Below, one piece after another: positions 3,737 through 8,527 of a stretch of 64,000 nucleotides of DNA (position 1 is its first letter; each line of letters starts with the position of its first letter). The position numbers and the translations under genes are program-made. Origin of the DNA: a virus (Duplodnaviria; Heunggongvirae; Uroviricota; Caudoviricetes); IMG/VR virus record IMGVR_UViG_3300042885_000900. One strand, 5' to 3'. Under the pieces are notes generated by a model, which saw nothing but the letters and a program-made list of their open reading frames with translations, did no database searches and had not been told where the DNA came from.

Positions 3737-3862
3737 ATTAATAAATATAACAACATCCCAAAAAAAAAGGGGGGCGGGGGGTTTGAATACGACCGGAGGG
3801 AGTTCGGGTTATGTGAGACATCAATAAAAAACCCCCAACTACTTAAAGCGGGGGTATCAATA

Positions 3863-4417: not shown

Positions 4418-4477
4418 ATTATTATTTTTTAATTAAAGATACAAATAAAAAACCCCACAATCAAGTGGGGGTATAAA

Positions 4478-4948
4478 TTAATATCCAATATGTTCCCTTA
4501 ATCCCGGAATAATAATACCGTACTGTTCATAGACAAGATAATTCATAACTCCGGTTCCCTTTGTTAATTGGGTAATCTTCTTATGTTCATCCTTAGTCAA
4601 CAATATAGTTGAAGAATATTTTTTAATTAATTCAGTAAACTCATCAACCCCCATATCAGGATTCTTATGTAACTCCTCAAACATAATCTCAGTAGACTTA
4701 ACTCTCGGAATGTAATGTTCGTTAACAGGTGTTCCCCCATTCTCAATTAACCCATTAGATTTAAACCCCGTTTTAAAATACTTAATTGTTGTAATATCAA
4801 ATAAAGGATTCCTATTCCTTGAACAGAACTCTTTTACCAATTCATCACCCCCACGATATTTACGGTATCTAACCAATAGACATTTGAAATCCTCTAAGGT
4901 TTCCTCAATCATTCTCTGCTTTAACTTACTAATCTTTGGGATACCCAT
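4478..4948 (-). CDS. Hypothetical protein
   Basis: ORF track. Promoter box at 4965-4972. Confidence 0.6.
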   Translation of the reverse strand: MGIPKISKLKQRMIEETLEDFKCLLVRYRKYRGGDELVKEFCSRNRNPLFDITTIKYFKTGFKSNGLIENGGTPVNEHYIPRVKSTEIMFEELHKNPDMGVDEFTELIKKYSSTILLTKDEHKKITQLTKGTGVMNYLVYEQYGIIIPGLREHIGY

Positions 4949-4964
4949 AATCGTTTATTTTTTA

Positions 4965-4972
4965 CAAAGATA
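4965..4972 (-). promoter_or_regulatory. TATCTTTG box, read on the minus strand, 17 nt upstream of the gene starting at 4948
   Basis: The + strand text reads caaagata. Equivalent boxes lie at 1077-1084, 2727-2734, 4434-4441, 5406-5413, 41197-41204, 41512-41519, 43341-43348, and near 32437, 32929 and 38352. Confidence 0.55.
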
Positions 4973-5058
4973 ATACATCCCCCCCTTATAATCAAATTTT
5001 CTTATCCGGAAATTTTCCGGATTATAAACCATTATTTCCGGATTCCCCAAAATGGGGG

Positions 5059-5379
5059 TTAATTTACAAATCTCATTAGGTCACCCATTTTTTTTATATT
5101 ATGTTTATCCCCAAACCAATCTCTAATAATTCTTGACACATCATCAGGATTCATTAAAAAGAAAGTGGATACCATATTGGTTAATTTACTACCCCTAAAA
5201 ATAAGAATACCCCCCGATGAATTAAAAATATTGAAATATAGTATAAGGGATTTATTCTTTTTTGATATAATATCATAAGTGTTATATTTCTCTCTTGGTT
5301 TTCCCTTAATACAAACCACCTCATCCCCCAAATAATTATCCAAGAACTTATATATTATTTTTTTCATATTATTTTCCAT
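5059..5379 (-). CDS. Hypothetical protein
   Basis: ORF track. Promoter box at 5406-5413. Terminator hairpin near 5045-5060. Confidence 0.6.
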   Translation of the reverse strand: MENNMKKIIYKFLDNYLGDEVVCIKGKPREKYNTYDIISKKNKSLILYFNIFNSSGGILIFRGSKLTNMVSTFFLMNPDDVSRIIRDWFGDKHNIKKMGDLMRFVN

Positions 5380-5429
5380 AATTCTATATTTTGGGACAAA
5401 GATAATACAATTTATTTAATAACCAAACA

Positions 5430-5715
5430 TTATTTTCAGACATCCCCAAAATGGGGGGATTTTTTCCCCAAAAATTTTTCCAGAATTTTTTAGACAAATT
5501 TTCTATAAAAGTTTTTTTTACCCATACACAATGTAGAGAGGATTATCCCCCCTTTTGACGCCCAAAATACCCATATGGGGAGGGGGGATACCCCCCCGGG
5601 AGGGGGTGTAGGGGGTATATACGGGGGGATGGGAGGGTGTTTGGACAAAAAACCCCCTGTAAATAGATGGGGGGTGAGGGGGTATATTTGATTTATCCTA
5701 ATAAATGGGGGAAAA
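5430..5715. other. GC-rich island without ORFs, containing G6/C7 runs and nested inverted repeats such as gggggg-ata-ccccccc
   Basis: Composition differs sharply from the AT-rich surroundings. It lies between the stop of 5752..6309 and the promoter of 5059..5379. Confidence 0.5.
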
Positions 5716-5751
5716 GTTATCAACATGACATGGTGTCAGTTGTTCATAACT

Positions 5752-6309
5752 TTATTCATTATACACAATAAAGTTATGAACACTTGGTTGAGCTGGGTAT
5801 ATTCTATCGGGGTTACCCCACTTTGATTCATAGGTATACATTCTTTTGAGTTCATCGGGGATGTATTGATAAGTATTCTTGTAGTGGTCGCTTATCTTGG
5901 TTCGGAACTTGTGCATATCATCATCTTGAGTTGGGGATAGTTCCTCAAGGAACCCCCCAATTGCGTAAGAGGAGTTGTAGTCATTCTCTGGGTCCTTAAG
6001 TTTTATCTTCCAATAGGGGTTTAATGGAATGTTGAGGTAATCGGATAACATATAGAAGTCAACGTATAGGTCAATGACTGTTATAGAATCATACTTCTTA
6101 TAATCATCCCCATACTTCCATCCTTTAATGAATGGGTATTTCTTTGCTGTAGCTTTGGTTGTTATATCAAACCCTTTATCTATTAATTTATTTTCTTTCA
6201 TATTGTATAAATATATTGAAATAATGTTTGTGTATGTAATATATAATTTGAATTTATTTGGTATTGTGAAAACAATATCATATCTTTGTACCACAGAATC
6301 GGTAATCAC
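5752..6309 (-). CDS. Hypothetical protein
   Basis: ORF track. Confidence 0.6.
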   Translation of the reverse strand: MITDSVVQRYDIVFTIPNKFKLYITYTNIISIYLYNMKENKLIDKGFDITTKATAKKYPFIKGWKYGDDYKKYDSITVIDLYVDFYMLSDYLNIPLNPYWKIKLKDPENDYNSSYAIGGFLEELSPTQDDDMHKFRTKISDHYKNTYQYIPDELKRMYTYESKWGNPDRIYPAQPSVHNFIVYNE

Positions 6310-6387
6310 TCCGGATGGGGGCGCGACGATAGGGTTGGAAGAGTAGACTCCACAGCGCTTTATATATTTTTATATAAATCCCCCATC

Positions 6388-6819
6388 CTATTCATTGAAA
6401 GATATCCCTTTCATATCTTCAGATATCTTTAATCCCCCCACTATCCATTGGTTCTTAACATCTATCTCACATATAATATTCTTATTTAAATTGTCACTCC
6501 ACCATAACATCTGTAGATTATCCGGGTGAGCAATATGTTTCTCCGGGATGTTATGGTCAAACCCCCATTTCACACTTATCTTATGGTCTATGTGATATTT
6601 GTGCCAACCCCTGTTCTCCACCCCCTCGATAAGATGTTTCACCTGTTCGGTTAGTTCATTAACCCTTATCCTATACTTATCGTATTTGGTTAAAGGTTTT
6701 TTAACTTTCTTCTTCCTTGTTGTTTTAGTTGGGGGTTTATAGTGTTTACTCTTGTTAGATTTTAATGGACTCTCACTCCATATCGGAGTCAAATCAGTCT
6801 TTTTTGGTATTAATCCCAT
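6388..6819 (-). CDS. HNH endonuclease, likely a homing endonuclease
   Basis: The H-N-H arrangement is visible in HKYHIDHKISVKWGFDHNIPEKHIAHPDNLQMLWWSDNLNKN. Confidence 0.6.
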   Translation of the reverse strand: MGLIPKKTDLTPIWSESPLKSNKSKHYKPPTKTTRKKKVKKPLTKYDKYRIRVNELTEQVKHLIEGVENRGWHKYHIDHKISVKWGFDHNIPEKHIAHPDNLQMLWWSDNLNKNIICEIDVKNQWIVGGLKISEDMKGISFNE

Positions 6820-7341: not shown

Positions 7342-8173
7342 AATTGTTCATATCTTTTTATAAATATAGTTATTAACAATTGGGTTTTAAATACTAACAG
7401 AGGGGATTGTTAATAACTTTTTATGTTAAATTTCTTGTTTTTGACAAAATGTCAGTCTCTCTTTACGATGGGGATAATCCTTTTCCCCCATTTTAATAAT
7501 ACAACCTTACCATCTTCTACCACATATTCCCACCAAATATGGTCCTATGAATAGTTAAACATCAATTTATCCCCTCTGTAGGGGTCTGTAGGACCAATAA
7601 ATTAGGTATATACATTTCCCAGTGATTTATGTTAGTTATGGTACATAACGCGTGAGAACCGTTAGGTGTTAGGATGATTACTCTTCAACCTGACTGAAAG
7701 GAAGTTCAACGACCCGTCAGGGGGTATTTTGTTCCATTTAATAGACTCCCTACGTGTCGGTCAGGACACGAACTTAATGGGTGTGGAATGGGACACCACA
7801 GAGACAGATAATACCATTAAAACTTACCTTTCGTATCAGTCCTGTGAGTTTTAAACTGACTACAATGATACAAAACATAAGTTATTATAACATCCCGTAG
7901 TATGTTCATTTCATTTGATTGTTCATTAACAATGAACATCCACTAACAATGAACGCCATACCGGATAACTAAACCTGTCCCTCATTTGTCCCCCCTTAAA
8001 AGGGGGATTAGTTAAATGGGGGGTAAAATGATTATATGTATAAATTATTGAGTTTTTTATACATATGGAAGTTGATGTGTATAGATAAATGGATTTCTTA
8101 TACATATATCCGTATTGATACGATAATATACGAAAATGATACGATTAATTATTTGAGAGATATATTTATATAT

Positions 8174-8527
8174 ATGAAATTTATTATAACAGAGAATAAA
8201 AGGAATCAGATTGTCACTGATTGGTTGGATAAGAACTATGGTAATTTAAAACCTGAACAACATAAAATTGCTTCCGTTACGTCTTATGTGGATGATAATG
8301 AAAATGAGATATTCACATCTAATTGGTCCGGATTAGTTACCATACATAACTCTGATTTACAAACAATGTTATTTACCGTATTTAATTTGGATAAGGATAG
8401 TTTAAATAGTATCTTTATACCTTGGATGATGGAGAGATATTATATAAAAGTTAATGATGTTCGGTATACCACTTGGCATTGTAATAAGTGTGGTGAATTT
8501 CATCCTACTAAATATCATATTGATTAA
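8174..8527 (+). CDS. MKIIITE-family paralog (MKFIITENKRNQIVTDWLDKNYGNLKP). It has a CxxC...H C-terminal stretch. Start taken at the internal Met.
   Basis: Its N-terminus aligns with 15391..15732 (WLNKNYGDLEP). The upstream part of the ORF is AT-rich junk. Confidence 0.6.
   Translation: MKFIITENKRNQIVTDWLDKNYGNLKPEQHKIASVTSYVDDNENEIFTSNWSGLVTIHNSDLQTMLFTVFNLDKDSLNSIFIPWMMERYYIKVNDVRYTTWHCNKCGEFHPTKYHID

Follow-up and report, generated by a model that had tools for sequence, protein, structure and literature searches.

Why should a phage genome that is otherwise rich in A and T carry, directly behind one of its small genes, a block of about 300 nt that is crowded with runs of G and C and is devoid of convincing open reading frames (ORFs)? 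Such an island lies at positions 5443-5751 of a 64,000-nt stretch of DNA (here called the window) from a virus of the class Caudoviricetes, IMG/VR record IMGVR_UViG_3300042885_000900, where it forms the 3' flank of a gene for a 149-aa protein. Here we show that the island is a conserved mosaic of hairpins of terminator design arranged around a nearly invariant C-rich core, and that a gene cassette has been inserted at the hairpin that closes it. We tentatively favour the view that it is a composite terminator and insulator combined with a cassette junction, comparable to the promoter-early stem-loops (PeSLs) of T4-type phages, in a phage that probably infects Bacteroidota.

An earlier reading of the same letters (the original prediction) had singled out 5430-5715 as GC-rich and ORF-free, and the composition of the region agrees: the GC content is 0.60 at 5550-5649 and 0.51 at 5600-5699, compared with about 0.31 over the whole window. 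The plus-strand GC skew at the island is +0.37 to +0.65, and is mostly negative across the first 11 kb. The G5-G7 and C5-C7 runs that drew attention to the region are also there, 11 runs of at least five G or five C falling within 5430-5715 (starting at 5453, 5547, 5582, 5591, 5602, 5611, 5623, 5653, 5669, 5678 and 5707). In the 64 kb there are 82 such runs against about 13 expected from base composition, and they are concentrated in the first 10 kb. The hairpin GGGGGG-ATA-CCCCCCC, the repeated GGGGG-TATAT units and the numerous inverted repeats were all found at the places claimed for them, and GGGGGTATAT occurs twice, at 5611-5620 and 5678-5687.

Relatives of the region were collected from the contigs that carry homologues of the 149-aa protein and by a DNA-pattern scan for the core of the island, which together gave 12 distinct versions. 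The protein itself has nine metagenome homologues (69-92% identity, mostly of 149 aa) and no homologue in known phages, and a profile search for distant homologues returned the same nine proteins and hence no deeper set for covariation. Two relatives sit on phage contigs of 322 kb and 208 kb, which places the locus in a jumbo-phage lineage. Far from being absent from related genomes, an outcome that was to have refuted the original prediction, the region is present and strongly conserved in all relatives: it lies immediately 3' of the 149-aa gene in each of them, with one copy per locus, and nhmmer searches of the 64 kb and of every locus found no further copies. Mean pairwise identity is 0.97 in the core (5611-5642) and 0.87-0.93 over 5620-5790, compared with 0.825 for the gene and 0.77 for its third codon positions; conservation collapses past about 5466, and the genes downstream vary between relatives. 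Searches of known phage genomes by megablast, blastn and tblastn gave no match, and bacterial and archaeal genomes contain no match to the core pattern. The only ORF across the island (5490-5726), which had been put down to the C and G runs as a Pro/Gly-rich artefact, is interrupted by stops or frameshifts in 10 of the 12 aligned relatives; the window and its closest relative are the two sequences in which it stays open. We therefore reject it as a protein-coding gene and regard the island, judged by this comparison, as non-coding and as either constrained or homogenised by recombination. The covariation analysis that had been proposed was run, but the sequences are too similar for it, double-sided changes being limited to two block-level events.

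All genes between 1 and 10.6 kb lie on the minus strand, the strand switch falling at about 10.7 kb, and the island is therefore to be read on that strand. Read in this direction, 94 nt past the stop codon of the 149-aa gene, lies the hairpin T1 (5643-5686), which consists of six C (5674-5669), an 11-nt loop, five G (5657-5653) and a U6 tract (5652-5647), with a further C5 upstream (5682-5678). With its GC-only stem and U-tract it has the sequence features of an intrinsic terminator, and is predicted to function as one. All four sequence versions of T1 fold, with energies of -9 to -13.5 kcal/mol; in one relative, L014, TCCCCCC has been lost and GGAGG now stands opposite CCTCC, a single event that leaves the stem compensated. 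At least eight other hairpins of the same type (C4-7, loop, G4-7 and a T-run) occur in the window, and those in the first 5 kb directly follow gene ends. On the strength of this shared design, the folding of all versions and the compensation in L014, T1 would be the ordinary terminator of the 149-aa gene.

The same design extends further into the island. Boxes of the form TAT(A/C)CCCCC open T1 and two hairpins downstream of it, and since the identical 5'-arm motif is present in the terminators at 4471 and 3854, the island reads as three terminator-type modules in a row. The terminator at 3854 belongs to one of two smaller G/C knots that had been reported, at 3760-3860 and 4975-5060, both of which are real. 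On the minus strand the first (3737-3862) comprises a terminator (3854-3832) with a T6 run followed by a C-rich tract that ends in C6-G-C6-T9, and within the window its G4Hunter score (1.92 at 3768) is second to that of the island. The recurrence of the terminator-then-C-rich-tract layout at 3854-3769 speaks for a role in transcription generally rather than for a unique origin or packaging (pac) site. This knot is not common to L003, in which the matching genes are just 17 nt apart.

Beyond T1, the stretch that extends to the 3' arm of the last hairpin is a tract of exactly 86 nt. Its middle block exists in two variants, A and B, and the tract has the same length in both though about 45 nt differ between them. 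It contains 39-41 C, with 5-6 G in variant B and 13-15 in variant A, where hairpins are possible, and its excess of C reverses the usual preponderance of G over C on the gene strand. Within it lies the C-tract core (5598-5642, minus strand; 27 C and one G in 45 nt), the nearly invariant part of which, ACACCCTCCCATCCCCCCGTATATACCCCC, makes up the first 30 nt of the tract and spans 5611-5640. The plus (template) strand of the core reads GGGGG-TATATAC-GGGGGG-AT-GGG-A-GGG at 5611-5637, with loops of 7, 2 and 1 nt. This canonical G-quadruplex motif (G3+N1-7 x4) is retained in 12/12 relatives and is the sole plus-strand example in the 64 kb; counting both strands there are two, whereas 200 dinucleotide shuffles gave 0.2 on average and never more than 2, and the core has the top G4Hunter score in the window (2.24). 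The G-quadruplex or i-motif element of the original prediction is thus borne out as a canonical and conserved sequence, which as a motif does not demonstrate a function.

The next module is the G6-ATA-C7 hairpin (5582-5597; G7-TAT-C6 on the gene strand), a lineage-specific element. It is confined to variant A (the window, L022, L020, L021, L001, L006 and L016), is replaced in variant B (L003, L018, L012 and L014) and is broken in L023, and we therefore rejected it as the functional core of the island; a compensated 5-bp hairpin that can be drawn in its place in variant B was discarded as too weak (-0.4 kcal/mol). The third module, H3 (5544-5590, minus strand), pairs the arms TATCCCCCCT (5590-5581) and AGGGGGGATA (5553-5544) in a 10-bp stem around a 27-nt loop. 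Its ten pairs are kept in 12/12 relatives while the sequence of the loop varies between variants, and in three variants its folding energy is -15.6 to -22 kcal/mol. Both one-sided changes in the stem produce G.U pairs on the gene strand and C.A mismatches on the plus strand, and thus fit pairing in gene-strand RNA. H3 has no U-tract on either strand. Next comes a spacer with many runs of A and of T (5466-5543), which has an ordinary base composition (GC 0.27-0.30) and is 74-87% identical among relatives before identity falls sharply to below 45% beyond about 5466. Helical phasing of these runs was rejected, their spacing being irregular on inspection (11-15 nt).

The island is closed by the hairpin T2 (5443-5465; CCCC-AAAAT-GGGGGG plus T6, written CCCCCCATTTTGGGG), which has its T-run on the plus strand only and is terminator-like on that strand. 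A second copy of T2 is found at 5044-5058, and a 33-nt direct repeat (5026-5058 and 5425-5457) flanks the gene between them. Comparison with L022 and L023 identifies 5044-5442 as an insertion of 399 nt, comprising a promoter, a gene and the second T2 copy, that is bounded exactly by direct copies of the CCCCC(C)ATTTTGGGG hairpin. In those two relatives there is a single T2 copy and no gene at this place, the TCCGGAAAATTTCCGGA palindrome and the next promoter following straight after; the segment that directly follows T2 there is now at 4965-5043 in the window. The second G/C knot (4965-5058) is made up of a CCCCCATTTTGGGG hairpin, the TCCGGAAAATTTCCGGA palindrome and a promoter the spacer of which carries a G7 run. 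The inserted gene (5059-5379, minus strand) encodes an ORFan protein of 106 aa with no relatives in viral contigs, and has its own promoter, of the Bacteroidota type, TTTG-N19-TATCTTTG (5397-5427, minus strand; identified by a pattern scan of the sequence), directly after T2. The mosaic character of the island is not limited to its edge: two types of T1 arm and the two middle blocks occur in all four combinations (1A, 1B, 2A and 2B), and recombination has therefore taken place within the island. As a separate observation, 5006-5043 contains a conserved TATCCGGAAATAATGG and the perfect palindrome ATCCGGAAAATTTCCGGAT shortly before the -33 box of the promoter that comes next, a pair that also lies directly after T2 in L003, L014, L018, L022 and L023 and is a probable operator site.

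The closest parallel to this arrangement comes from the PeSLs of T4-type phages. These stem-loops lie between genes, often consist of polyG and then polyC, function as terminators and adjoin a host-type early promoter, and they are the points at which crossovers exchange ORFan cassettes (Arbiol et al. 2010, PMC2839356; Comeau et al. 2014, PMC4122927). Three of the four PeSL features are found here: intergenic polyG/polyC stem-loops that are predicted terminators (T1, T2 and the similar hairpins), an adjacent host-type early promoter (5427-5397) in a region of small ORFans, and the insertion or deletion of an ORFan between close relatives, flanked by copies of a stem-loop. The fourth, a short multi-copy motif, is lacking, since the island is some 300 nt long and single-copy while a PeSL is about 100 bp in length and recurs tens of times, and only the small hairpin modules recur here. 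There are two further differences: the promoter is of the Bacteroidota (TTTG / TAnnTTTG) rather than the sigma-70 type, and neither the nearly invariant 30-nt core nor the 10-bp hairpin lacking a U-tract has a PeSL counterpart. Because the island is longer and single-copy we regard it as a variant of that kind, belonging to another phage-host system, and not as a PeSL proper. Elsewhere on the minus strand of the window there are compact terminator modules, CCCC..GGGG-TTTTTTATT, at 2046-2078, 2712-2775, 3816-3854 and 4419-4482, and at 2712-2775 and 4419-4482 the T-run leads straight into TTTGTATCTTTA, a promoter-like -7 box. Judged by their sequence, these modules, small and present in several copies, are what corresponds to PeSLs in this genome.

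According to the model that we favour, the island would be a control region at the 3' end of an early-type ORFan gene in an uncultivated jumbo phage. RNA polymerase leaving the gene would meet the C-run/G-run stem and U6 tract of T1, where most transcription would stop. Transcripts that read through would enter the untranslated, C-rich and G-poor 86-nt tract, the template strand of which is G-quadruplex-prone, and this tract may act as a second barrier, in the form of a Rho-loading (rut-like) site, a template-strand roadblock, or both. Polymerase that passed it would then meet the stable, conserved hairpin H3, so that C-tract and H3 could both add to termination and insulation. The A/T-run spacer and T2 would close the block, T2 terminating transcription in the opposite direction, and past T2 would lie the regulated promoter of the next cassette. 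The conserved C-run/G-run hairpins would double as short patches of homology for the insertion, loss and swapping of cassettes.

Known termination signals each resemble part of this arrangement. The stem and U6 of T1, together with the compensated change in one relative, are those of intrinsic terminators, but this accounts for no more than about 45 of the roughly 300 nt, and the loop of T1, at 11-13 nt, is unusually large. Rho-dependent terminators carry rut sites, such as that of lambda tR1, which are untranslated, C-rich, G-poor and weakly structured over about 60-90 nt, and timing barriers are common in early regions. An untranslated tract of this composition, about 86 nt long and placed in an early region behind both a stop codon and a terminator, could be akin to them; however, the constancy of its sequence is far above what a rut site needs, and in variant A it is interrupted by G-runs.

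Several of our own findings weigh against the boundary model. An identity of 97% in the core against 77% at third codon positions exceeds what either a rut-like tract or a passive patch of homology would require, and the fixed length of 86 nt exceeds the need of a passive boundary, such that the near-invariance of the 30-nt core is left unexplained by the model alone. H3, since no U-tract follows it, is by its sequence not itself an intrinsic terminator. The size of the T1 loop and the single-copy state of a block of about 290 nt, whereas PeSLs measure about 100 bp and occur in tens of copies, add to these points. Nor are the folding energies better than those of shuffled sequences, in that any set of C-runs and G-runs will pair, and folding z-scores were discarded as uninformative for this reason. 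Finally, operator-like boxes at the 5' end of the island point to regulation at the level of DNA, of which the model makes no use. It is conceivable, though we consider it rather unlikely, that the 30-nt core (5611-5640) in its 86-nt frame serves this jumbo-phage lineage as a dedicated signal of a sort not described before. Such a signal could take the form of a template-strand G-quadruplex or i-motif switch, or of a C-rich RNA platform that a protein of the phage or the host would bind, and it could control read-through into the variable cassettes or mark the genome for replication or packaging. On present evidence the finding is not a new class of element.

The rival explanation that survives best, which we take seriously while judging it unlikely, is that the product of the region is a functional C-rich RNA of the gene strand, either a small RNA (sRNA) derived from the 3' untranslated region or from read-through, or a cis-acting platform. 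Its single-stranded C-tracts (CCCUCCC and CCUCCUCCC) would bind protein or G-rich RNAs, with H3 and T1 as anchors. Conservation at or above the level of coding sequence, an 86-nt spacing and an H3 stem that stay the same whichever of the two middle blocks is present, and one-sided changes in H3 that are G.U-compatible solely on the gene strand are all consistent with this explanation. Searches of Rfam gave no match at gathering score in the 64 kb; in a local search at E<=10 the best matches reached 13-28 bits against thresholds of 37-100, and the only sub-threshold likenesses on the gene strand were to sRNAs with C-rich motifs, RsaE (E=0.29) and ar14 (E=0.15), both far below gathering. RsaE/RoxS (RF01820) and the alphaproteobacterial ar14 (RF02344) share with the island C-runs and CCUCC-type motifs between hairpins, but the scores for these two families are 24 and 22 bits, where gathering requires 79 and 59, and their host group differs. 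Moreover, no promoter was found between T1 and the core, so that the core, lying behind a canonical terminator, would be transcribed by read-through alone, and there is no double-sided covariation beyond the two block-level events. The start sites in the window, being of Bacteroidota type, also lack G-rich Shine-Dalgarno sequences as targets, and we know of no Shine-Dalgarno-based target logic in Bacteroidota. The structured non-coding RNA of the original prediction is a possible reading.

A role for the island as DNA, as a cluster of protein-binding sites that constitutes an origin, a pac site or a regulatory hub, seems to us doubtful in spite of the boxes in its 5' part. A repeat scan identified a 16-bp perfect inverted repeat across the stop codon (5741-5782), formed by two TGTTNATAACTTT boxes (5767-5782 and 5741-5756). 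The 3' arm has two mismatches in most relatives, which indicates that the box sequence, rather than a hairpin, is conserved. It is followed by the palindrome TGACA-N3-TGTCA (5726-5738), kept in 11/12 relatives, a third box, TGTTGATAACTTT (5713-5727, minus strand), invariant in all relatives, and a conserved spacer, CCCCCATTTATTAGGATAAATCAAATAT (5687-5712, minus strand), that carries a lone plus-strand TATATTTG (5683-5690). The latter resembles a -7 box, but was rejected as a promoter for want of a -33 element. A sigma-70-like promoter, TTGATA-N17-TAGGAT, was rejected because its spacing is destroyed by a 10-nt deletion in L001 and L013 and it differs in type from the host promoters. Three TGTTNATAACTTT boxes (7345-7420) and a TGACA-AAA-TGTCA palindrome (7438-7450, plus strand) also lie immediately upstream of the ATG (7341) of a gene for a 95-aa protein. 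The occurrence of the same motif types at 5713-5782 and 7345-7450 suggests that they are operators for one or more DNA-binding proteins, and the 95-aa protein could itself be the box-binding protein.

The explanation at the DNA level would draw on these boxes and palindromes, for which binding proteins are the best explanation, and on the TAT(A/C)CCCCCTC boxes. It accords with an island that is single-copy, syntenic and strongly conserved, and in which three direct boxes hold their spacing in variants A and B; however, the C-run boxes are the ordinary 5' arms of this phage's terminators. Known origins of the iteron-plus-spacer type and known pac sites, such as lambda ori and SPP1 pac, resemble the island in that short repeated boxes and inverted repeats occur together with a spacer of A/T runs in one non-coding block that is conserved and single-copy. 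The island differs from them in having no unwinding element more AT-rich than the genome average, no GC-skew turning point or strand switch (that at about 10.7 kb being the switch of the region), and no recognised initiator, replication or terminase gene adjacent to it, and among the replication and packaging candidates of the original prediction the origin in particular finds no support beyond the repetition of boxes. Sites of the pac or cos type have defined virion DNA ends and are usually near terminase genes, none of which was recognised among the ORFs scanned in the window. Five short metagenome contigs (L013, L015, L016, L017 and L024) do end inside the island, but at five positions (equivalent to about 5550 to 5640), and these ends are likely to be assembly breaks at G/C homopolymers or at the bubble formed by variants A and B, which explain them equally well.

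That the core acts in itself as a structure, a G-quadruplex of the plus (template) strand or an i-motif of the gene strand that serves as the signal, for example as a roadblock to transcription or replication, we consider improbable. Such a role would be consistent with the retention of the motif and its loop lengths in all relatives, with its G4Hunter rank and with its rarity by chance, and of the five variable columns of the core four lie outside the C-tracts. However, the difference between tract and loop columns (1/17 against 4/17) is not significant (p=0.34), the loops and flanks are nearly invariant too, which goes beyond what a pure G-quadruplex needs, and the same runs are able to pair as ordinary hairpins. 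Least of all do we credit the idea that the part of the island behind T1 is a functionless relic of former cassette terminators, similar between phages through recent recombinational spread, which would suit its modular, terminator-derived look, the recombination within it and the dispensable G7 hairpin, yet is made very improbable by a core that is 97% identical while the flanking protein differs by up to 31%, by the exact 86 nt of variants A and B and by an H3 intact in 12/12.

Several features of the window agree on one group of hosts. Promoters of Bacteroidota have the form TTTG at -33 and TAnnTTTG at -7. In addition to the promoter that follows T2, pattern scans found TTTG/TATCTTTG-type promoters at 4996-4965 and 1108-1077, and the TATTATCTTTG motif is enriched in the window (18 matches against 5.5 expected). 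The start codons of the window, read from the sequence, have no Shine-Dalgarno sequences, and the nearest bacterial relatives of the phage's nitroreductase gene are almost all from Bacteroidota, including Dyadobacter, Flavobacterium and Chryseobacterium. From promoters of the TTTG-N19-20-TAnnTTTG form, start codons without Shine-Dalgarno sequences and the nitroreductase relatives, which are mutually consistent, we infer that the host is most likely a member of the Bacteroidota. The window is otherwise phage-like, with a collagen-like tail-fibre gene and a DNA methyltransferase, and a scan for tRNA and tmRNA genes found none in it.

The 149-aa gene (5752-6201, minus strand; stop TAA 5754-5752) is an ORFan, its protein having no Pfam or PHROG match and its AlphaFold model a pLDDT (predicted local distance difference test) of 44, which makes it unusable; searches of protein families with the flanking genes likewise gave no match, leaving neighbours without recognisable function. 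The original prediction placed the island correctly in the 3' region of the gene ending at 5752 and upstream of the promoter of 5059-5379, but it started that gene at 6309, whereas the start is most likely ATG 6201 rather than GTG 6309, as the relatives share that ATG and the length of 149 aa. Between the conserved 95-aa and 149-aa genes there is a 143-aa ORF (6388-6819, minus strand) with PHROG matches of the endonuclease VII type (phrog_1035, E=1e-4; phrog_5104, E=1e-12), which may be a mobile nuclease. On the plus strand, a full Bacteroidota-type promoter, TTTG-N20-TATCTTTG (6257-6288), is directed away from the 149-aa gene, and no ORF downstream of it is credible. A stem rich in G and C, GCGCGACG...CACAGCGC (6321-6359), comes next and then a T-rich run; the segment is conserved in L001 (5860-5920), and 6257-6385 of this strand is a candidate small RNA.

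A second non-coding block lies at 7420-7935 on the minus strand. It is free of ORFs for about 500 nt and more than 90% conserved in L001, L003, L006 and L014, and it carries lineage-specific hairpin-like insertions, such as GTGTCCTGACCGACAC in the window and L014. The block has no Rfam match at gathering score or at E<=1, and RNAalifold predicts 114 pairs with one double-sided covariation from five sequences that are too similar to one another; it is a candidate for a large structured RNA or control region. Close to it, the window and L001 alone carry a plus-strand ORF of 163 aa (8036-8527), which together with some 400 nt of flanking sequence is inserted into the conserved non-coding region.

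If the island is the composite boundary that we propose, terminator/promoter junctions similar to PeSLs would not be peculiar to T4-type phages. In a jumbo phage of Bacteroidota, and with a different type of promoter, the same way of insulating ORFan cassettes and of shuffling them would have arisen. The invariant 30-nt core in its fixed 86-nt frame would offer a small and defined target for asking whether G-quadruplex-prone or C-rich tracts regulate anything in AT-rich phage genomes. For those who annotate such genomes, islands of G- and C-runs would mostly represent terminator architecture and not genes.

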